Assembly (NCBI GenBank): GCA_017533915.1
Contig: JAFWHX010000002.1
Span: forward strand, 55,064-119,063
Reading direction: 5' to 3'
From: Eubacterium sp.
GTDB taxonomy: Bacteria; Bacillota; Clostridia; Peptostreptococcales; Anaerovoracaceae
DNA length: 64,000 bases
Shown: positions 2,850 through 48,947 of the stretch, piece after piece
Position numbering within the stretch: position 1 is the stretch's first letter
How the letters are laid out: each line of letters opens with the position of its first letter
Position numbers and translations under genes: made by a program
The notes under the pieces: model-generated
The model's input: only the letters and a program-made list of their open reading frames with translations
Told to the model about the DNA's origin: nothing
The model's database searches: none

Positions 2850-5267
2850 CTAGAGCGCGTGCCAGATGTCATCCGAATACTCCCTGATCGTGCGGTCACT
2901 TGAGAAGAACGCGGATCTTGCGATATTGATCAGCGACATCCTGCCCCACTTCTCCTTGTCAGAATACAATTTGTCGACGTCTTCCCATGCCTTTACGTAT
3001 GAATCAAAATCTCCGAGTACGAAATATTCATCATTGTATCTCAGGAGAGCGTCGTAGATCTGCCAGAAGTTATAGTTGCACTTTTCGAAGAAGCCGTCTA
3101 CGAGCTGCGCCGTCATGCGCTGGAGCCTCGGGTCATTACCGCACACTTCACCTGAAATGTAGCCGCCGTGTCTGTAGAATTCCTCGACCTCATCTGATGT
3201 GTAGCCGAAGATCCTCATGTTGTCGTCCCCTACGAGACGGTTGATCTCAACATTCGCCCCGTCCATCGTACCGAGCGTGACTGCACCGTTCATCATGAAC
3301 TTCATGTTTCCGGTTCCGCTTGCTTCTTTACCGGCGGTAGATATCTGCTCGCTTATGTCTGCGGCAGGATAGATGAGCTGTGCGTTGGATACGCAGAAAT
3401 TTTCGATGAAGATTACTTTGATCTTGTCGTTTACGTCCGGGTCTGCGTTGATGATGTCAGCAAGGCTGTTTATGAACTTGATCACTTCCTTCGCGAATGC
3501 ATAGCCCTGGGCTGCTTTACCCGCGAAGATGAACGTATATTTGTTTATCGGAAGATCTGGATTCTGCTTCAGCCTGTTGTAGAGGTCGAGGATCTTGAAT
3601 CCGTTCAGAAGCTGCCTCTTGTAGGCGTGCATTCTCTTCACCTGTACGTCGAATATGGAGTCAGGATCGATCTCGATCTCCATGTTCTTCCTGACATATT
3701 CAGCCAGGCGTACTTTGTTCGCGCGCTTCACTGCAGCGAGCTGTTCGAGGAATTCCGGATCGTCGGCAAAGTCTTCAAGCTGTTTTATCTGATCAAAATC
3801 GCGCTGCCAGTCTGTCCCGAGTTTTGAATCGATGAGGTCGGTCAGCTCCGGATTAGCCTGGATCAGAAAGCGCCTGTGGCTGATGCCGTTGGTCTTGTTG
3901 TTGAATCTGGCAGGATCCATCTCGTAGAACTTATGGAACACTGTCTGCTCAAGGATATCTGTATGAAGCGCAGACACACCGTTCACAGAATGGCTGCCGA
4001 TGACTGAAAGGTTTGCCATTCTGACCTGGTTGTCCCAGAGCGGCGCTGTTTCCTTTTCTGTCTCCCACCAGTCGTCTGTCTTTTTCTGAAGCTCTTCCTG
4101 CCATCTCTTGTTGATCTCTTCGATGATCATGTAGATCCTCGGAAGCAGCTCCTGGAAGTACGGGATGTCCCAGCGCTCAAGGGCCTCAGGGAGTACAGTG
4201 TGATTCGTGAATGAGATCGTCCTGGTCGTGATGTCCCAGGCGTCGTTCCACTCAAATCCCTCCTGGTCCATGAGGATCCTCATGAGCTCAGGTATGCACA
4301 TCGTAGGATGTGTGTCATTTATATGGATCTGGACGTGATCCGGAAGCTTTTCAAGGCCTTCGTCTCCGAACTCAGCCTTATATTTTCTTATGATCTTTCC
4401 CATGCCGGCAGCAACGAGGAAGTATTCCTGGCGGAGCCTGAGCCTCTTTCCGATGCCGTTCGAGTCGTCAGGATAGAGTATGCTCGTGATGGCTTCGATC
4501 TCGCTCTTCTCGCGCATCGCTCTTGCATAGTCGCCTTTGTTGAAAGCGTCCATGTCGATAGTGTCGTGCACCGGCTTTGCATCCCAGAGGTAAAGGCGGT
4601 TAAGCGCTTTGCCGTTACGTCCGATAACAGGAACGTCGAACGGGACCGCTCTTACTTCAGTGTAGCCTACATGCTTATATTCCATCTTGCCGTTGTTGTA
4701 GCTTCTGTCGACACGGCCGCCGAATCTCACGATGACAGAGTTTATCGGCTTTGCTCTCTCCCAGATATAGCCGTCATCAAGCCAGGCATCCGGGAGCTCG
4801 ATCTGATAGCCGCTCTCGATCTTCTGCTTAAACAGGCCGAACTTGTAGCGGATGCCCATTCCGTCTCCTCTTATGCCGAGTGCCGCCATAGAATCGATGA
4901 AGCACGCAGCCAGCCTTCCGAGGCCGCCGTTTCCAAGACCAGGCTCCGGCTCGAGTGCCAGGAGATCCTGTATGTCGATCCCGAATTCTTTCAGACCTTG
5001 TTCAGCCTGTTTCCTTATTCCAAGGTTTATAAGATAGTTCTCCATAAGCTTTCCGATAAGGAATTCCATAGAGAAGTAATAGACTCTTTTGTTCTTAGGA
5101 GGCTCGAATGCTGCCGCTGCTTCCGCTCTCGTCTCAGCCTCGCGCTTGATGAGTTCGGCAAGCACCTCGAATTTATCTTCATTGTCCAGCTTGTCCGGCA
5201 GACTGTCGAACATGGATCTGGACAGCTGTACATATTCTGCTTTAAAATCTTCTGATGTTTTGATCAT
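2850..5267 (-). CDS. glgP: Glycogen/maltodextrin phosphorylase
   Basis: 805 aa with GNGGLGRLAACF and the PLP-lysine motif EASGTGNMKFMMNGA. Confidence 0.95.
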   Translation of the reverse strand: MIKTSEDFKAEYVQLSRSMFDSLPDKLDNEDKFEVLAELIKREAETRAEAAAAFEPPKNKRVYYFSMEFLIGKLMENYLINLGIRKQAEQGLKEFGIDIQDLLALEPEPGLGNGGLGRLAACFIDSMAALGIRGDGMGIRYKFGLFKQKIESGYQIELPDAWLDDGYIWERAKPINSVIVRFGGRVDRSYNNGKMEYKHVGYTEVRAVPFDVPVIGRNGKALNRLYLWDAKPVHDTIDMDAFNKGDYARAMREKSEIEAITSILYPDDSNGIGKRLRLRQEYFLVAAGMGKIIRKYKAEFGDEGLEKLPDHVQIHINDTHPTMCIPELMRILMDQEGFEWNDAWDITTRTISFTNHTVLPEALERWDIPYFQELLPRIYMIIEEINKRWQEELQKKTDDWWETEKETAPLWDNQVRMANLSVIGSHSVNGVSALHTDILEQTVFHKFYEMDPARFNNKTNGISHRRFLIQANPELTDLIDSKLGTDWQRDFDQIKQLEDFADDPEFLEQLAAVKRANKVRLAEYVRKNMEIEIDPDSIFDVQVKRMHAYKRQLLNGFKILDLYNRLKQNPDLPINKYTFIFAGKAAQGYAFAKEVIKFINSLADIINADPDVNDKIKVIFIENFCVSNAQLIYPAADISEQISTAGKEASGTGNMKFMMNGAVTLGTMDGANVEINRLVGDDNMRIFGYTSDEVEEFYRHGGYISGEVCGNDPRLQRMTAQLVDGFFEKCNYNFWQIYDALLRYNDEYFVLGDFDSYVKAWEDVDKLYSDKEKWGRMSLINIARSAFFSSDRTIREYSDDIWHAL

Positions 5268-5385: not shown

Positions 5386-5709
5386 TCAGATCAGCATCTG
5401 GATCATCACCATATATGCGATCGTGCCCGCGAGGATACTAAGCACAGAATTACGCTTCCATATCTGCATAAGCACCACGACCGCTGCCGCGGCGAGTTCA
5501 GGCAGCCCGAAGGGAACAGCGGTGAACTCAGTCTCTCTGAGGCAGTATATGACGAGCATACCGATTATAGCAGACGGGAGCACTTTGCCGAGGTAGGCGA
5601 TATATGCAGGTGTCTCTTTGTTGAATACCAGGAACGGAAGGAACCTGAGAAGGATCGTTACCGCTGCCATGACAGCTACGAGTATCGCCGAATAAACATC
5701 ACCGGTCAT
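5386..5709 (-). CDS. azlD: AzlD-family branched-chain amino acid transport protein
   Basis: 107 aa, very hydrophobic. It overlaps the azlC stop by 4 nt, the typical azlCD arrangement. Confidence 0.75.
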   Translation of the reverse strand: MTGDVYSAILVAVMAAVTILLRFLPFLVFNKETPAYIAYLGKVLPSAIIGMLVIYCLRETEFTAVPFGLPELAAAAVVVLMQIWKRNSVLSILAGTIAYMVMIQMLI

Positions 5710-6404
5710 TTTGATGCCTCCTCTCCATTTTCAAGCCTGCCGCGGAATATCGTAAGCACTGCTGTGATCAGGATCATCGCCGGTATCAGGAAGCGGTCAG
5801 GCCTGAACAGAACGAGGCAGATAAGCGTCCCGAAAAGTCCTGTCAGCGCCGGGACATGGTCCCTGGTCTTCAGCCACTGCTCTGTGAATGACGCGATGAA
5901 AAGCGCCGTCATACTGAACTCGATCCCCTCAGTTGAGAACGGCAGTACCGAACCTATCAGGCTTCCAAGCACGCACCCCGTGACCCAGTAGCTGTGGTCG
6001 AACAACGTCACAAAAAACCTGTATCTGTTCAGGTCTTTTTTGTCTATGCCAGGCTCATCGTCCACGCAAAGCAGCGAGTACGTCTCGTCCGTAAGTCCGA
6101 ATATGAGATACGGCTTATATTTTCCGGCGCCTTTATATCTGTCGATCATCGAGATACTGTAGAACAGATGCCTGGCATTCACCATCACCGTCGTTATGGC
6201 AGTCGTGATGATCGAAGCCCCTCCTGTAAGAAGCCCGATCCCCACATACTGCATGGATCCTGCGAAAATAAAAAGCGCCATGGCAAAAGACCACAGCACT
6301 CCGTATCCTGCGTTATCCATCAGTATTCCAAAGCCGATGCCGAGGATAACATATCCCGCCATGACTGGAACTGATTTATAGAACGCTTTTCTTATAATTT
6401 CCAT
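5706..6404 (-). CDS. azlC: AzlC-family branched-chain amino acid permease component
   Basis: 232 aa multi-TM protein with AzlC-like N-terminus KSVPVMAGYVILGIGFGIL and FAGSMQYV. Confidence 0.8.
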   Translation of the reverse strand: MEIIRKAFYKSVPVMAGYVILGIGFGILMDNAGYGVLWSFAMALFIFAGSMQYVGIGLLTGGASIITTAITTVMVNARHLFYSISMIDRYKGAGKYKPYLIFGLTDETYSLLCVDDEPGIDKKDLNRYRFFVTLFDHSYWVTGCVLGSLIGSVLPFSTEGIEFSMTALFIASFTEQWLKTRDHVPALTGLFGTLICLVLFRPDRFLIPAMILITAVLTIFRGRLENGEEASK

Positions 6405-35053: not shown

Positions 35054-35152
35054 GATATCCGCCACACAGACTATATGCCGGAATATATGATGCAGTCAGG
35101 CGGCGCGTCAGAAAAGCTGCGTCACAGAGACCAAATACAGAAAGGACAGAAA

Positions 35153-36076
35153 ATGTCGAAGTCAGAAATCAAGAATCTTATCAAGATCACCGATCTCAGT
35201 AAAGACGAGATCGATCACCTGATCGAGATCGCAGATCAGATCGAAGCCAATCCGAAAGGCTTCAGCGAGATGTGCAGGCACAAGAAGCTGGCAACTTTGT
35301 TCTTTGAGCCAAGTACAAGGACGAGGCTCAGCTTTACAGCGGCCATGATGGAGCTTGGCGGCGACGTACTGGGTTTTGATGATGCTGGATCGAGCTCGGC
35401 GACTAAAGGTGAAAGCGTAAGCGACACCGTCGTCATGGCCGGCTGCTACGCGGACATCATCGCTATGCGCCACCCCAAAGAAGGTGCGCCTGTCATCGCA
35501 TCACAGAAAACCACCGTTCCGCTGATCAACGCGGGTGACGGCGGTCACTTCCACCCAACGCAGACGCTCACCGACCTGCTGACGATAAGCAGGAAAAAGC
35601 AGCTCGGGAATTTCACGATCGGGCTTTGCGGCGACCTCATGTTCGGGCGGACAGTACACTCTCTGATCGAGGCGCTGCTCCGGTATGAGGGTATAAAGTT
35701 CATTCTCATCTCACCGCCGGAACTGAGACTCCCTAAATATGTGAAAGATGAGATGGATGAAGCCGGTGCCGAATGGACCGAGTGCGAGGCGCTTGAGGAC
35801 GCGATGCCTGACCTGGACATCCTGTACATGACAAGAGTCCAGCGTGAGCGGTTCTTCAACGAAGAAGATTACGTCCGCCTGCGCGACAGCTACATCCTGA
35901 CTCTCGACAAGCTCAAGACGGCGAAAGACGACATGATCATCATGCATCCGCTTCCTCGTGTGAATGAGATCGCAGTCGAGGTCGACGATGATCCGCGGGC
36001 GTGCTACTTCTATCAGGCACTCTGCGGCAAACATATCAGGATGGCTTTGATACTGTATCTACTTGGGCTGAAGTAG
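35153..36076 (+). CDS. pyrB: Aspartate carbamoyltransferase catalytic subunit
   Basis: [12 protein letters not shown] and HPLPR motifs. The start [10 protein letters not shown] follows GAAAGGA. Confidence 0.95.
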
Positions 36077-36710: not shown

Positions 36711-36786
36711 TGGAGCTCCCGGCCGGACTTGAACCGGCGACCTGCGCGTTACGAATGCGCTGCTCTACCGACTGAGCCACGGAAGC
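36711..36786 (-). tRNA. tRNA-Thr (anticodon CGU)
   Basis: The reverse complement GCTTCCGTGGCTCAGTCGGTAGAGCAGCGCATTCGTAACGCGCAGGTCGCCGGTTCAAGTCCGGCCGGGAGCTCCA folds as a cloverleaf. It has a 7-bp acceptor stem, a GCTC/GAGC D stem, a GCCGG/CCGGC T stem with a TTCAAGT loop, an anticodon loop TTCGTAA, and an encoded CCA. Positions 31-39 are an A.C mismatch. Confidence 0.9.
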
Positions 36787-38071: not shown

Positions 38072-39001
38072 CTATTCGCATTTGGCAAGAAGCTTCTCCC
38101 ACTTCTCGTCCACGTATTTCTGGGCATCTTCGATCATCCACTCGTTGCCCGGCTGGAACATGTGCTTGAACCTGCCCTGCTTCGCGAGGAACTGTTCCAC
38201 AGGGAGCTTCTTACGAGGCTCGTATGTAAGATGCCATTCACCTTCTACGATCTCGTACATCGGCCAGACGCATGTGTCTACTGCCAGCTTGCAGATTTCT
38301 GCAAGCTCTGACGCATCGTATCTCCAGCCTCGCGGACACGGTGCAAGTACGTTCAGGAAGCAAGGGCCCTCCGTATAGATCGCTGTGTGTGCTTTGTTGT
38401 ACAGATCGCGCATGTCGTTGTACATCGTAGTCTGCGCAACGTAAGGAATGTTGTGGGCTGCGATGATCGCGGTCAGGTCTTTCTTGTCCTGCTTCTTTCC
38501 GTAGCTCTCCGTACCGACAGGAGATGTCGTAGTGTTCGCAAAGCGAGGAGTCGATGACGATCTCTGGATACCAGTGTTCATATATGCCTCGTTGTCGTAG
38601 CAGACGTAGACCATGTCGTGACCGCGCTCCATGGCGCCGGAAAGCGACTGCAGTCCGATATCATATGTGCCGCCGTCTCCGCCGAAGCAGATAAATTTGA
38701 AGTTTTCGTCGATCTTGCCGCGCTTCTTGAGTGCTCTGTATGCAGTCTCGACACCACCTGTCATCGCAGCGGCATTCTCGAACGCGCTGTGGATGTAGCT
38801 GTCTTCATAAGCTGTGTTCGGGTAGATGAATGTTGAGACTTCAAGGCAGCTCGTAGCGTTGCTCACGACCGCCCTATCGCCCTCATCCAGCGCGCGGAGC
38901 ACGTTATTTATCGCGACTCCCGCTCCACATCCTGCACAAAGCCTGTGGCCAGGAGCAAGACGCGGCTTTTTGTTAAGTTGTTCCTTAAGACTATATGCCA
39001 T
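38072..39001 (-). CDS. 2-oxoacid:ferredoxin oxidoreductase beta subunit (TPP-binding)
   Basis: CAGCGAG near the N-terminus and the TPP motif FGGDGGTYDIGLQSL. The ATG overlaps the alpha stop by 1 nt. Confidence 0.9.
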   Translation of the reverse strand: MAYSLKEQLNKKPRLAPGHRLCAGCGAGVAINNVLRALDEGDRAVVSNATSCLEVSTFIYPNTAYEDSYIHSAFENAAAMTGGVETAYRALKKRGKIDENFKFICFGGDGGTYDIGLQSLSGAMERGHDMVYVCYDNEAYMNTGIQRSSSTPRFANTTTSPVGTESYGKKQDKKDLTAIIAAHNIPYVAQTTMYNDMRDLYNKAHTAIYTEGPCFLNVLAPCPRGWRYDASELAEICKLAVDTCVWPMYEIVEGEWHLTYEPRKKLPVEQFLAKQGRFKHMFQPGNEWMIEDAQKYVDEKWEKLLAKCE

Positions 39002-40221
39002 TACTCTTCCTCCCTTACTCCTATATGCCTGTAAGTTTCACCTGTGTCTCCTGTCTCGGCTATCTTGCCGAGCTCAGCGAATATCGTCTCAAACGTCTCG
39101 ATCGTGACGTCGCGTCCGCCGAGTCCGTATACGTAATCGATCATCAAAGGCCTCTCGGCCGCATCGTACAGCGCTGACCTTGTCTCAGCGAATACCGGGC
39201 CACCGCAGCCTGACATGCCTTCCGACTTATCCATCGCCGCTACTGCCTTCACCCCGGACAGGGCTTCCTCAAGCTCTTCCTTCGGGAACGGCCTGAATAC
39301 ACGGATCTTTACAAGTCCGGCTTTGATGCCCTGCTCACGGAGCATGCTCACCGCCGCCTTGCCGGTACCTGCTGAAGAACCGATGACAACGACTGCAAGT
39401 TCTGCATCGTCCATCATGTATTTCTCGATCATCTCGTACTTGTGGCCGAACGACTCGCCGAACTCCGATCCGACTTTCAGTATCGTCTCGTGCGCCTGCT
39501 TCATCGCTTCAGCCTGCGCTTTTTTGATCTCCATATAGTAGTTGCTCACGCCGTAAGGTCCGACTGCCAGCGTCTCATCTTTCTTCAGCAGATAATGTTC
39601 CGGATGATACTCGCCTACGAATCCTTTTACGTCATCGTCGCCGTAAAGTGTGATGTTCTGGACGTTATGGCTCGTGATGAATCCGTCCTGGCAGATCATG
39701 ACCGGTATCCTGCAGCGCTCTGCGATCGGAAAAGCCTGGATATAGTTGTCGTAAGCTTCCTGATTGTCTTCAGAATAGATCTGGATCCATCCCGCGTCGC
39801 GCGCTCCCATTGAATCCGAGTGATCGCAGTTGATGTTTATCGGTCCGGTAAGTGCGCGGTTCACGACTGCCATGACTATCGGAAGTCTGTCGGACGCCGC
39901 TACATAAAGCAGCTCCCACATGTAGGCAAATCCTGCTGACGAAGTAGCTGTGATCGCACGCGCTCCGGCAGCAGAAGCTCCGATGCATGTGGACATCGCT
40001 GAGTGCTCAGATTCCACCGGAACGAATTCTGTATTTACTTCACCGTTTGCTACATAGCTGGAGAAATACTGCGGTATCTCTGTAGATGGCGTGATCGGGT
40101 ATGTGCCCATAACGTCAGGGTCTATCTGCTTCATAGCATAAGCGACAGCTTCGTTTCCGCTCATGCGCTCCCTGATCTTCTCGGCAGCTTTCGGCGCCTT
40201 CTTCTTGCGTGTTTCTGCCAT
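39001..40221 (-). CDS. 2-oxoacid:ferredoxin oxidoreductase alpha subunit
   Basis: GNEAVAYAMKQIDPDVMGTYPITPSTEIPQ and the POR/VOR alpha pattern. The start MAETRKKK overlaps the delta stop (TGATG). The track ORF extends to 40284. Confidence 0.9.
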   Translation of the reverse strand: MAETRKKKAPKAAEKIRERMSGNEAVAYAMKQIDPDVMGTYPITPSTEIPQYFSSYVANGEVNTEFVPVESEHSAMSTCIGASAAGARAITATSSAGFAYMWELLYVAASDRLPIVMAVVNRALTGPININCDHSDSMGARDAGWIQIYSEDNQEAYDNYIQAFPIAERCRIPVMICQDGFITSHNVQNITLYGDDDVKGFVGEYHPEHYLLKKDETLAVGPYGVSNYYMEIKKAQAEAMKQAHETILKVGSEFGESFGHKYEMIEKYMMDDAELAVVVIGSSAGTGKAAVSMLREQGIKAGLVKIRVFRPFPKEELEEALSGVKAVAAMDKSEGMSGCGGPVFAETRSALYDAAERPLMIDYVYGLGGRDVTIETFETIFAELGKIAETGDTGETYRHIGVREEE

Positions 40222-40532
40222 CAGTCTTCCTCCCTTCTCATCGTGATCGCCTGGAATGGACAAACTTTGGCGCAGATCCCGCATCCTTTGCAGTGATCCA
40301 TGTCCATGCCGGACATCTTACCCTCTACGACTTTGATTGAGGAGTCCGGGCAATACGGTACGCAGAGCATACACTGTCTGCATTTCTGACTGTTCCAGTC
40401 CGGAGTCTCGACCCGCCACTCACCTGTCTTTACAAGCTTTGATGTCGCAGGCTCATAGATCTCCGCACCTGGGGTAAGCTCCTCCCAAGGGGAGGTCTCA
40501 TGTATATCTTTTGCTGATCTGAACATATTCAA
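40221..40532 (-). CDS. 2-oxoacid:ferredoxin oxidoreductase delta subunit (2x[4Fe-4S] ferredoxin)
   Basis: CRQCMLCVPYCP and CKGCGICAKVCP cluster motifs. Confidence 0.9.
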   Translation of the reverse strand: MNMFRSAKDIHETSPWEELTPGAEIYEPATSKLVKTGEWRVETPDWNSQKCRQCMLCVPYCPDSSIKVVEGKMSGMDMDHCKGCGICAKVCPFQAITMRREED

Positions 40533-41130: not shown

Positions 41131-41405
41131 ACCTTCTCCTTATATACCAAAAAGTCCGCCCTGTATCAGGACGGACATATTTTCCGCGTGTAAACCACCT
41201 GCTACAAAACGCATACCATCATATGCTCTCCTGATAACGGGGGAGGACCGTCACGGCTTACTGGTCAGAACTTTCTGCCGCGCGACTCGGGAGTGATCTT
41301 CATCACAGCGCTACTTCAGTACCGGGCTCGCACCATCCCCGGCTCGCTACTCACCTTTTCACATCTGGACTACTGTCTCCGTCACAGTCTTTAGCAATTC
41401 AGTTG
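41131..41405 (-). promoter_or_regulatory. T-box riboswitch leader, specifier AUC (Ile)
   Basis: The minus strand carries a Stem I AGUA/GAA specifier loop and the distal element AGCGA + GCCGGG-GAUGGUGCGAG-CCCGGU. It also has the F-box CCGUUA, the T-box-like GGUGGUUUACACGCGG, and the terminator GUCCGUCC-UGAUACA-GGGCGGAC-UUUUU just before the RBS AAGGAGAAGG. Confidence 0.8.
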
Positions 41406-41410
41406 TTTTG

Positions 41411-41439
41411 ATATTACATCAACACAGATAAAAAGTCAA
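41411..41439 (-). promoter_or_regulatory. Sigma-A-type promoter of the T-box/OFOR operon
   Basis: TTGACT (41439-41434), a 17-nt spacer, TAATAT (41416-41411), starting 7 nt after the addB stop. Confidence 0.55.
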
Positions 41440-47827: not shown

Positions 47828-48939
47828 TTATAATTGCTTCAGCTCTTCGTTTATAAATATATCAATATCTCCGTCCATGACAGCCTGTACGTTTCCGGCT
47901 TCTGCGCCGGTCCTGTGGTCTTTCACAAGTGTGTAAGGCTGGAATACGTATGAACGTATCTGTGACCCCCACGTTATCTGCGAGAAGTCGCCTTTGATCT
48001 CCTTCAGTGTTTCTTTATGCTGCTGCTCTTTCAGGTCAGCAAGCCTGGAGATAAGGATCTTCATAGCCATATCTTTGTTCTGATGCTGGCTTCTCTCATT
48101 CTGACACGTTACTACGATGTTTGTCGGAATATGCGTGATACGGATCGCGGAGTCGGTCTTGTTTACGTGCTGTCCGCCCGCGCCTGAGCTTCTGTATGTG
48201 TCGATACGGAGGTCTTCCGGCTTTATCTCCACATCACCGACGTCATCCATCTCCGGCATGACCTCAAGCGCAGCAAACGATGTCTGCCGCTTTCCTGCCG
48301 CGTTGAACGGAGAGATCCTTACCAGCCTGTGCACGCCCTTCTCATGTTTGAGATAACCGTAAGCATTGGTCCCCTCGATGAAGAACGTTGCGCTTTTGAT
48401 CCCGGCTTCTGTATCGTCCTGGACGTCCACGACATCTACCTTGAACCCGTGGTTCTCAGCCCATCTCGTGTACATCCTGAGGAGCATCTCAGTCCAGTCC
48501 ATGGCGTCGACTCCTCCTGCTCCGGCATGCACCGAGAGCAGCGCGTTCTTGCGGTCGTACTTTCCGCTCAGCAAAGTCGTCACGCGGTAGCTGTCAAGCT
48601 TCTTCTTGAGCTGCTCAAATGATGAGATGATATCATCCGCCTCCTGCTCTGCCTCTTCAGTCTCGCCCTCAGCTTCCATCTCATCGCAAAGATCGAGCAG
48701 CTCCTCCAGATCCTCGAACTCGCCGAGCAGCTCCTCGTACGCCTTGATCTTATCATCTATAGCTTTTTTCTCCTGGAGCACTTTCTGGGCAGCATCAGAA
48801 TCTGTCCAGAAGTCGTCAGCCAGTGTCTTTTTGTTCAATTCTTCTGATTCACTTCTGAGACCTTCCAGGTCAAAGTGAATCACCTACCTCTATAAGGATC
48901 GCCTTCTTAGCCGGCAGATCCTGCTTGACCGGATCCAGT

Positions 48940-48947
<8 letters not shown>
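47828..48947 (-). CDS. prfB: Peptide chain release factor 2, with programmed +1 frameshift (join 48947..48873, 48871..47828)
   Basis: Frame 0 reads [25 protein letters not shown] and then stops at TGA within CTT TGA C (48875-48869). The +1 frame continues [11 protein letters not shown] into the 351-aa ORF, which carries SPF and [11 protein letters not shown]. Confidence 0.95.

Follow-up and report, generated by a model that had tools for sequence, protein, structure and literature searches.

Why would the genes of a 2-oxoacid:ferredoxin oxidoreductase (OFOR) lie behind an RNA leader that reads the charging of a single tRNA? This question is raised by a 64-kb stretch of a Eubacterium sp. chromosome (contig JAFWHX010000002.1 of assembly GCA_017533915.1, positions 55,064 to 119,063), referred to as a whole as the window, in which the minus strand carries a T-box-like leader upstream of four OFOR genes. 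A T-box activates genes in response to its cognate tRNA in the uncharged state; such leaders are amino-acid-specific and normally control the genes of that amino acid. An earlier note on this DNA had proposed an isoleucine T-box attenuator ahead of a four-subunit OFOR operon. This proposal is borne out here by a covariance-model match, by covariation among orthologous leaders, by an AUC specifier in 21 of 21 leaders and by a signature shared with the leaders of ileS. The identity of the RNA, its specifier and the architecture of its switch are established by sequence analysis. With a probability of about 75%, we conclude that the leader works as a tRNA-Ile-specific T-box riboswitch by transcription attenuation and would induce an anabolic OFOR operon on isoleucine starvation.

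A T-box leader precedes the OFOR operon

The Rfam covariance model for T-boxes, RF00230, spans positions 41394-41164 of the window over its full length (model positions 1-219 of 219) with 65.7 bits and E = 3.8e-14, and the Rfam alignment assigns AUC to the specifier slot. A cmsearch with this model had been named in the earlier note as a check on the prediction. Its E-value is significant, whereas the score misses the curated cut-off of 93, the Rfam gathering score for this family, which is a curation threshold and not a biological feature. A scan of the whole window at gathering thresholds did not report the T-box and returned one tRNA only. The leader motifs predicted earlier were all recovered at their minus-strand coordinates, by reading the sequence and by script (Table 1). 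For the T-box-like sequence GGUGGUUUACACGCGG, presence was confirmed and the range was corrected from 41203-41184, which holds four extra 5' bases, to 41199-41184. Stem I in the window reads UGACGGAG ... GAA-G-AUC-A-CUCC-CGAG and thus comprises the basal kink-turn (K-turn), the two S-turn halves, the codon, the 3' purine and the closing helix.

Orthologous leaders were sought in a comparison set of 80 loci (denoted by L and a number) from species-representative genomes, all with relatives of the alpha subunit at 57-75% identity; 74 of them had enough sequence upstream to be assessed. A leader resembling that of the window was present at the equivalent site upstream of the gamma gene in 16 of the 80 loci, and a profile search brought this number to 19. 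A second, more canonical leader type surfaced in an Rfam scan of loci first scored negative, having been missed by the nhmmer profile of the leader; it is represented by L063 at 138.8 bits, above the Rfam cut-off, and likewise by L062, L047 and L038. In total, a T-box lies upstream of the OFOR operon in 21 of the 74 assessable Clostridia species-level genomes, in two leader sequence types. The leader of L032 is cut by a contig end and stands outside the 21 complete leaders. About 53 loci gave no leader by profile, by a search seeded with L063 or by a core-motif regular expression, with Rfam scans covering 10 of these. Enzymes with the leader group mainly in the clade of the window in a neighbour-joining tree, with further occurrences in three other places. 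Cultured carriers include the gut species Butyricicoccus pullicaecorum and Faecalicatena contorta. CodY boxes were in mild excess upstream of the T-box-less operons (19% compared with ~5% in mononucleotide shuffles), and this was not used as evidence. An unrelated second T-box with a UUC (Phe) specifier was seen at L004:11679-11916, at 91.9 bits, just under 93.

Covariation was measured on a curated structure comprising Stem I, Stem II, the IIA/B pseudoknot, Stem III and the antiterminator, in a MAFFT alignment of 17 leaders. In this alignment 86.5% of cells were paired, compared with 38-47% when the partners were slid by 1-3 columns, and 30 of the 44 base pairs showed changes on both sides. 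None of 500 shuffles matched the observed value on any of five measures; of the 39 pairs given by RNAalifold, 25 have compensatory changes. The basal helices of Stem I were 96-98% paired with compensatory changes, and the distal hairpin was 93.9% paired with both-side changes in all six pairs. The conserved positions of the AG bulge (AGCGA or AGAGA) are invariant among the leaders; together with the distal loop of Stem I, this bulge is predicted to form the platform for the tRNA elbow. The Stem II helix (alignment columns 158-163/209-214) was 80% paired, with four of its six pairs altered on both sides. Stem IIA is invariant, its F-box reading CCGUUA or CCGUAA, and the IIB pseudoknot helix (columns 221-224/237-240) was especially clean, being 95.6% paired with compensatory changes in all four pairs. 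Stem III was 100% paired in the 17 sequences, with two covarying pairs, and antiterminator helix A1 covaries as well.

The specifier reads isoleucine and the leader is related to ileS leaders

The specifier is AUC in all 21 complete leaders, namely the 17 of the first type and all of the second; no valine or leucine specifier occurs among them. The assignment of AUC made in the earlier note is thus upheld both by the Rfam codon slot and by invariance across orthologues. The base 3' of the triplet is A or C. UGGU opens the T-box bulge in 19 of the 21 leaders, in agreement with the predicted fit to an A73 discriminator. UGGU pairs with A73, which is the discriminator of bacterial tRNA-Ile, whereas bacterial tRNA-Ser has G73.

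The strongest control was a scan of gut metagenomes with the motif pair GGAGACAGTA-N55-85-GAANATCACTCC, which gave 70 contigs on which the gene behind the motif could be read. The specifier-domain motif pair GGAGACAGUA...GAANAUCACUCC lay upstream of ileS in 64 of these and upstream of the OFOR gamma gene in three; the protein cluster from the 64 contigs is isoleucine-tRNA ligase (TIGR00392, 969 bits, cut-off 621). A profile of the OFOR leaders covered the ileS leaders over nearly their full length, at a median of 125 bits compared with 140-187 bits for OFOR-type leaders, and the ileS leaders carry the same lengthened T-box bulge as the leader in the window. Because the same Stem I/specifier signature and extended bulge precede ileS, the OFOR leader is, as judged from sequence, a paralogue of the clostridial ileS T-box, and this relationship explains its modest Rfam score. 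The ileS leaders, which belong to the Ile class of RF00230, share with it a Stem I with K-turn, AGUA/GAA loop, AUC-A, AG bulge and distal loop, as well as Stem II, the IIA/B pseudoknot with F-box, Stem III, the UGGU bulge and the terminator. They differ in having isoleucyl-tRNA synthetase downstream instead of a four-subunit OFOR, and the OFOR leaders form a distinct subgroup.

Terminator and antiterminator share a strand

A constrained fold of the window leader gave an antiterminator, CAGG-UGGUUUACAC-GCGGA-loop-UCCGU-CCUG, of -8.3 kcal/mol in which UGGU is held unpaired. The terminator was calculated at -16.4 kcal/mol, and at -19.2 kcal/mol for a longer segment. The 5' arm of the terminator is also the 3' strand of the antiterminator. 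The mutually exclusive pairing that had been predicted is therefore found in the window, with a shared strand and an antiterminator weaker than the terminator. Every orthologous leader has an equivalent hairpin with a U-run; the calculated energies lie between -15 and -26 kcal/mol for the terminators and between -5 and -14 kcal/mol for the antiterminators. In 19 of the 21 leaders, UGGU is accompanied by a canonical antiterminator that is less stable than the terminator it overlaps. The ribosome-binding site (RBS) lies outside the terminator and is not sequestered by it, suggesting that control is transcriptional.

We infer tRNA binding and regulation in vivo, and likewise the direction and the substrate of the enzyme. 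Transcription would begin at the TTGACT/TAATAT promoter, and the anticodon GAU of tRNA-Ile would read the AUC specifier presented by Stem I, whose distal AG-bulge/loop platform would stack on the tRNA elbow. The free NCCA end of uncharged tRNA-Ile would then pair with the UGGU of the bulge, U opposite A73, and so favour the antiterminator, weak by itself at about -8 kcal/mol, over the terminator at about -16 to -19 kcal/mol. Because both structures need the same strand, they exclude each other. With the antiterminator stabilised, RNA polymerase would read through into the gamma-delta-alpha-beta operon; charged tRNA-Ile could not stabilise it, and transcription would end at the U-run.

The T-boxes of Bacillus tyrS and glyQS are the mechanistic and structural reference for leaders of this kind. 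With these canonical leaders the RNA in the window would share codon-anticodon pairing, NCCA-UGGN pairing, an exclusive terminator and transcription attenuation. It differs from glyQS, which is without Stem II and the IIA/B pseudoknot, in having both, and from the canonical Bacillus T-boxes in its bulge of 10 nt rather than 7 nt.

Two leaders from Lachnospiraceae depart from the common pattern. In L052 (~396-402) and L061 (~4846-4852), AUC and the terminator are kept and AUGGGAC or AUGGGAU, with UGGG, replaces GGUGGU; their antiterminators barely form (-1.8 and -6.6 kcal/mol). These leaders are either decaying switches or carry a variant interaction with the acceptor end.

A four-subunit OFOR as the probable regulated unit

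The downstream four-subunit OFOR operon was confirmed by Pfam and NCBIfam matches (Table 1). The gamma-delta-alpha-beta order is kept in all 80 related loci. When 813 flanking open reading frames were clustered, no family besides the OFOR subunits occurred in more than nine loci; most neighbours in the T-box loci are unrelated to one another, and many of these loci have a gene on the opposite strand 3' of beta. Since no other gene family is conserved beside the operon, the four OFOR genes appear to be the regulated unit.

All four subunits scored higher on models of pyruvate (POR) than of 2-ketoisovalerate (VOR) ferredoxin oxidoreductases. On the POR equivalog models, PorA_Arch gave 470.8 bits (cut-off 550), PorB 357.8 (405), PorC 189.9 (270) and PorD 96.9 (120), all below cut-off, and the VOR models gave lower scores of 363.9 for alpha (cut-off 646) and 292.8 for beta (405). 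As the subunits fall below every POR and VOR equivalog cut-off, the substrate cannot be assigned by homology, and sequence places the operon in the pyruvate/2-ketoisovalerate OFOR subfamily only. The nearest solved structure for alpha is the four-subunit pyruvate:ferredoxin oxidoreductase (PFOR) 9bt4 (293 bits), followed by oxalate oxidoreductase, and the pocket motif of alpha, R-A-x-x-x-P-I-N-I, is identical to that of 9bt4. The operon thus shares four subunits and Pfam domains with archaeal and Thermotoga POR and VOR and with 9bt4, the last having the same alpha pocket motif as well, and differs from the archaeal and Thermotoga enzymes in scoring under every equivalog cut-off. We know of no four-subunit POR or VOR reported to be under T-box control.

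Possible role of the enzyme in isoleucine synthesis

Because the OFOR would be switched on by isoleucine starvation, an anabolic, reductive role is the most likely. The enzyme would act as a ferredoxin-dependent 2-oxoacid synthase supplying an isoleucine-specific precursor. A catabolic VOR was considered and rejected on the logic of the T-box, since induction at isoleucine shortage would deplete isoleucine further. The substrate that we favour, at slightly less than an even chance, is propionyl-CoA, which with CO2 and reduced ferredoxin would give 2-oxobutyrate for the ilv pathway. Less probably, 2-methylbutyryl-CoA, CO2 and reduced ferredoxin would yield 2-oxo-3-methylvalerate, to be followed by transamination. 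A generic pyruvate enzyme is unlikely, and broad-specificity or other roles make up the remainder.

Genomic context appears to lean slightly towards propionyl-CoA over the 2-methylbutyryl-CoA route of the earlier note. In the T-box locus L004, ilvB-ilvN-ilvC are divergently adjacent to the operon and all score above their equivalog cut-offs. In L040 and L045, a gene for the large subunit of biosynthetic acetolactate synthase lies directly 3' of beta on the same strand, and in L020, L031, L040 and L057 a gene of the Cys/Met gamma-lyase family lies directly 5' of gamma, again on the same strand. Members of this family release 2-oxobutyrate. The POR-like subunit scores, the 9bt4-type pocket and the isoleucine-only specifiers may also lean to 2-oxobutyrate, though the argument is thin. 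The carboxylation of propionyl-CoA to 2-ketobutyrate is described in PMC7476758, whose passage on the reaction cites Buchanan 1969, Monticello 1984, Eikmanns 1983 and Sauer 1975. This carboxylation resembles the reaction proposed here in being OFOR-type and in giving an isoleucine-specific precursor in anaerobes, and it fits both the isoleucine-only control and the ilv, acetolactate synthase and gamma-lyase neighbours. It differs in being known as an activity and a labelling pattern, with no dedicated isoleucine-regulated gene set in the literature searched.

Some of these neighbourhoods deserve description in their own right. The locus L040:3831-10068, and L045 likewise, is T-box-less and carries a gamma-lyase-like gene, the OFOR and acetolactate synthase, an arrangement that looks like a 2-oxobutyrate-centred operon. 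The operons with a gamma-lyase-like gene in L020:3816-8129, L031 and L057 are T-box-less too. An RNA leader was sought on the gamma-lyase-OFOR operons and none was found.

Several observations weigh against this reading as a whole, from the T-box itself to the lean towards 2-oxobutyrate. The leader in the window scores below the Rfam gathering score (65.7 against 93 bits), and its T-box bulge has 10 nt against the canonical 7. On the MAFFT alignment, the middle of Stem I and antiterminator helix A2 are 29% and 55% paired, respectively. This is probably misalignment, an explanation put forward for A2 because the helix does form when the leaders are folded sequence by sequence. The leader is present on only 21 of 74 homologous operons and is missing from the close relatives L005 and L006, so that the enzyme family is not uniformly regulated by isoleucine. 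The neighbours linked to 2-oxobutyrate come from ~8 of the 80 loci, mostly T-box-less ones, and the gamma-lyase-like proteins score 430-440 bits, under the equivalog cut-off of 549.7. The 64-kb window holds no gene for an acyl-CoA-forming enzyme, an aminotransferase or the ilv pathway, and none is co-regulated with the operon. Binding of tRNA, regulation and enzyme direction are predictions from sequence. Finally, PorA of C. sporogenes, a member of the PFOR superfamily, acts on all three branched-chain 2-oxoacids (bioRxiv 10.1101/401489), and a POR-like sequence is thus compatible with the 2-methylbutyryl-CoA route.

Alternative explanations

The 2-methylbutyryl-CoA route, in which the OFOR would be a reverse VOR-like carboxylase salvaging 2-methylbutyrate from gut or rumen into isoleucine, falls within the main reading and is the less probable of its two candidate reactions. 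The closest relatives of the window are Anaerovoracaceae, which are amino-acid fermenters and may lack full ilv pathways, and an isoleucine-only specifier suits an isoleucine-specific precursor. Carboxylation of 2-methylbutyrate to the 2-oxoacid of isoleucine is known physiologically from rumen anaerobes and methanogens and has been proposed for M. ruminantium (PMC2812497), and clostridial PorA uses the isoleucine-derived 2-oxoacid among others (10.1101/401489). Both resemble the present case in the OFOR-type interconversion of 2-methylbutyryl-CoA and this 2-oxoacid and in their gut or rumen habitats; PorA is different in being catabolic and acting on branched-chain and aromatic 2-oxoacids, and it is likened here by reaction, not by family. 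VORs and PorA, however, take substrates derived from isobutyryl-, isovaleryl- and 2-methylbutyryl-CoA, so that some lineages should carry valine or leucine specifiers, yet all 21 are isoleucine. The subunits are also nearer to the POR than to the VOR models, with the pocket motif of a pyruvate enzyme, and the recurrent neighbours are linked to 2-oxobutyrate, none being an acyl-CoA ligase, ptb-buk or a branched-chain aminotransferase.

That a real T-box controls an ordinary pyruvate:ferredoxin oxidoreductase or pyruvate synthase, with isoleucine starvation serving as a proxy for a general lack of amino acids or carbon, or pyruvate being supplied to the ilv pathway, is improbable. Such an enzyme would account for PorA-D being the best family matches and a PFOR the nearest solved structure, and the ~70% of homologous operons without a T-box are as expected of a housekeeping enzyme. 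All four subunits nevertheless fall under the PorA-D equivalog cut-offs, T-boxes are amino-acid-specific and usually found on genes of that amino acid, and the isoleucine specifier is kept in two independent leader types over several Clostridia families, suggesting an isoleucine-specific benefit. We consider it very improbable that the leader is a decaying or non-functional duplicate of an ileS T-box that no longer regulates the OFOR. The sub-threshold Rfam score and lengthened bulge in the window would fit decay, as would L052 and L061 with their UGGG and hardly any antiterminator; yet 21 species-level genomes keep the leader in the same place, 30 of 44 pairs show compensatory changes, the specifier is invariant, the terminator/antiterminator pair is intact in 19 of 21, and the extended bulge is common to ileS leaders, which must be functional. 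Least credible of all is a specifier in another frame, one base downstream, by which a different tRNA would be sensed. The base after AUC is A or C, and UCA and UCC are both serine codons. The Rfam codon slot is AUC, however; the +1 codon is followed by a purine in none of the leaders and would abut the closing helix, UGGU suits A73 of tRNA-Ile and not the G73 of bacterial tRNA-Ser that this frame would require, and the identical context stands ahead of ileS in 64 of 70 contigs. Alternative frames, which are also not conserved, were accordingly rejected.

Features and surroundings of the locus

The coordinates of the leader and operon are collected in Table 1. The promoter lies directly 3' of the addB stop codon. 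It has 9 of 12 matches by the promoter scanner, which finds 6 such sites per 5 kb compared with 5.4 expected, so that the match is not significant alone. The mechanical open reading frame of alpha starts at 40284, whereas homologues (392-406 aa) start near 40179. Beyond beta, a NUP-like gene follows after 73 nt, and the scanner found no terminator-like site between the two. This gene is not conserved beside the OFOR operon in the other genomes compared. In this genome alone it may be transcribed together with the T-box operon, of which it is an uncertain member.

Table 1. Positions of the leader elements and operon genes in the window
Feature	Position	Strand	Details
Sigma-70-like promoter	41411..41439	-	-35 TTGACT 41439-41434, 17-nt spacer, -10 TAATAT 41416-41411
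T-box leader RNA, Stem I to antiterminator	41164..41394	-	Rfam RF00230 and covarying orthologues
Stem I	41284..41389	-	K-turn, specifier-loop AGUA, AG bulge, distal hairpin; Rfam alignment
K-turn UGA...GA	UGACGGAG 41384-41377 / CUCCCGAG 41293-41286	-	
Specifier-loop half AGUA	41374-41371	-	
AG bulge AGCGA	41348-41344	-	
Distal hairpin GCCGGG-GAUGGUGCGAG-CCCGGU	41343-41321	-	
Specifier-loop half GAA	41301-41299	-	
Specifier triplet AUC (Ile)	41295..41297	-	followed by A and CUCC; GAA-G-AUC-A-CUCC = 41301-41290
Stem II GCGCGGC ... GCCGUG	41252..41283	-	internal GAAA/AGUA motifs; Rfam alignment
Stem IIA/B pseudoknot	41226..41251	-	IIA ACGG/CCGU including F-box; IIB loop UCCU 41247-41244 with AGGA 41232-41229
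F-box CCGUUA	41240-41235	-	
Stem III hairpin CAUAU-GAUG-GUAUG	41212..41225	-	
Antiterminator	41167..41201	-	A1 CAGG/CCUG; bulge UGGUUUACAC with UGGU 41197-41194; A2 GCGGA/UCCGU
Intrinsic terminator GUCCGUCC-UGAUACA-GGGCGGAC and U5	41149..41176	-	hairpin 41176-41154, U5 41153-41149; scanner match
RBS AAGGAGAAGG	41132..41141	-	sequence
Gamma start codon ATG	41130	-	
OFOR gamma, 195 aa	40543..41130	-	PF01558 138 bits; TIGR02175 PorC_KorC 210.6 bits (cut-off 81.1)
OFOR delta, 103 aa, 2x[4Fe-4S] ferredoxin-like	40221..40532	-	TIGR02179 PorD_KorD 99.1 bits (cut-off 60.05); Fer4 domains
OFOR alpha, ~392 aa	39001..40179	-	PF01855 and PF17147; PorA_Arch 470.8 bits (cut-off 550)
OFOR beta, 309 aa, thiamine pyrophosphate-binding	38072..39001	-	PF02775; PorB 357.8 bits (cut-off 405)
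Possible fifth co-transcribed gene, NUP/PNP_UDP_1-like, 355 aa	36931..37998	-	PF06516 90 bits

The window is an ordinary piece of Clostridia chromosome, close to Anaerovoracaceae and Eubacterium metagenome-assembled genomes. Its gene content includes glycogen genes, azlCD, a Zn transporter, pyrimidine genes, addB, prfB, secA and cobalamin genes; ileS, ilv genes, aminotransferase genes and tRNA-Ile are absent from all 64 kb. The only other function related to branched-chain amino acids is azlC-azlD (branched-chain amino-acid exporter family; 5386-6404, minus strand), located between glgP and glgB. Near the OFOR operon lies pyrB (aspartate carbamoyltransferase), both in the window (35075-36076) and in an Anaerovoracaceae locus (L007:3391-4329), indicating local synteny. 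A lone tRNA-Thr(CGU) on the minus strand (36711-36786) is flanked by a promoter-like site (36849-36820) and a terminator (36703-36682) of its own. In addition, prfB (release factor 2; 48869-48947, minus strand) carries a classic programmed +1 frameshift site, CTT-TGA-C, at 48875-48869, and its short upstream frame begins with the ATG at 48947, overlapping the end of secA.

Among the comparison loci, a protein of ~305 aa with no Pfam match and weak CbiT-like methyltransferase similarity adjoins the OFOR operon in seven (L011:7077-7982, L027, L030, L033, L044:4147-5055, L009:929-1876 and L012:1750-2706), and in one T-box-less subclade it lies directly 3' of beta. Two matches to Rfam V_AS7 on the minus strand, at L040:194-362 (88.1 bits) and at L045:197-365 (62.5 bits), fall under the cut-off of 90 and more likely reflect conserved coding sequence than an RNA gene.

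Implications for anaerobic isoleucine synthesis

The RNA itself is a standard T-box of a well-known class; its OFOR target is unusual and appears to be undescribed in the literature searched. No paper on a T-box/OFOR pairing was found in that open literature; a prior entry in TBDB or RegPrecise is possible. The RNA would not surprise a riboswitch specialist; for anaerobe physiology, it offers a concrete and testable gene candidate. The ferredoxin-dependent reductive-carboxylation route to isoleucine is known from labelling and crude-extract work only, dating from the 1960s-80s. At somewhat better than even odds, the operon encodes a dedicated 2-oxoacid synthase that gut and rumen Clostridia induce on isoleucine starvation. 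It would then supply the genes still missing for this route from propionate and/or 2-methylbutyrate, and would be the first case of a T-box on a CO2-fixing ferredoxin enzyme.

A T-box is a reliable pointer to function, because it keeps its genes off unless a single tRNA species is uncharged. In the present case it points at a target annotated as 'pyruvate ferredoxin oxidoreductase', which is usually read as catabolic, and it cautions that POR and VOR annotations in Clostridia may hide anabolic, amino-acid-specific enzymes. Since carriers such as B. pullicaecorum and F. contorta are in culture, the question is directly testable. If our reading holds, it would provide both the gene set and the regulatory logic for an old, genetically unassigned isoleucine route starting from propionyl-CoA or 2-methylbutyryl-CoA, and for a sizeable group of commensals the short-chain fatty acids of the gut would serve directly, and under regulation, as precursors of amino acids.

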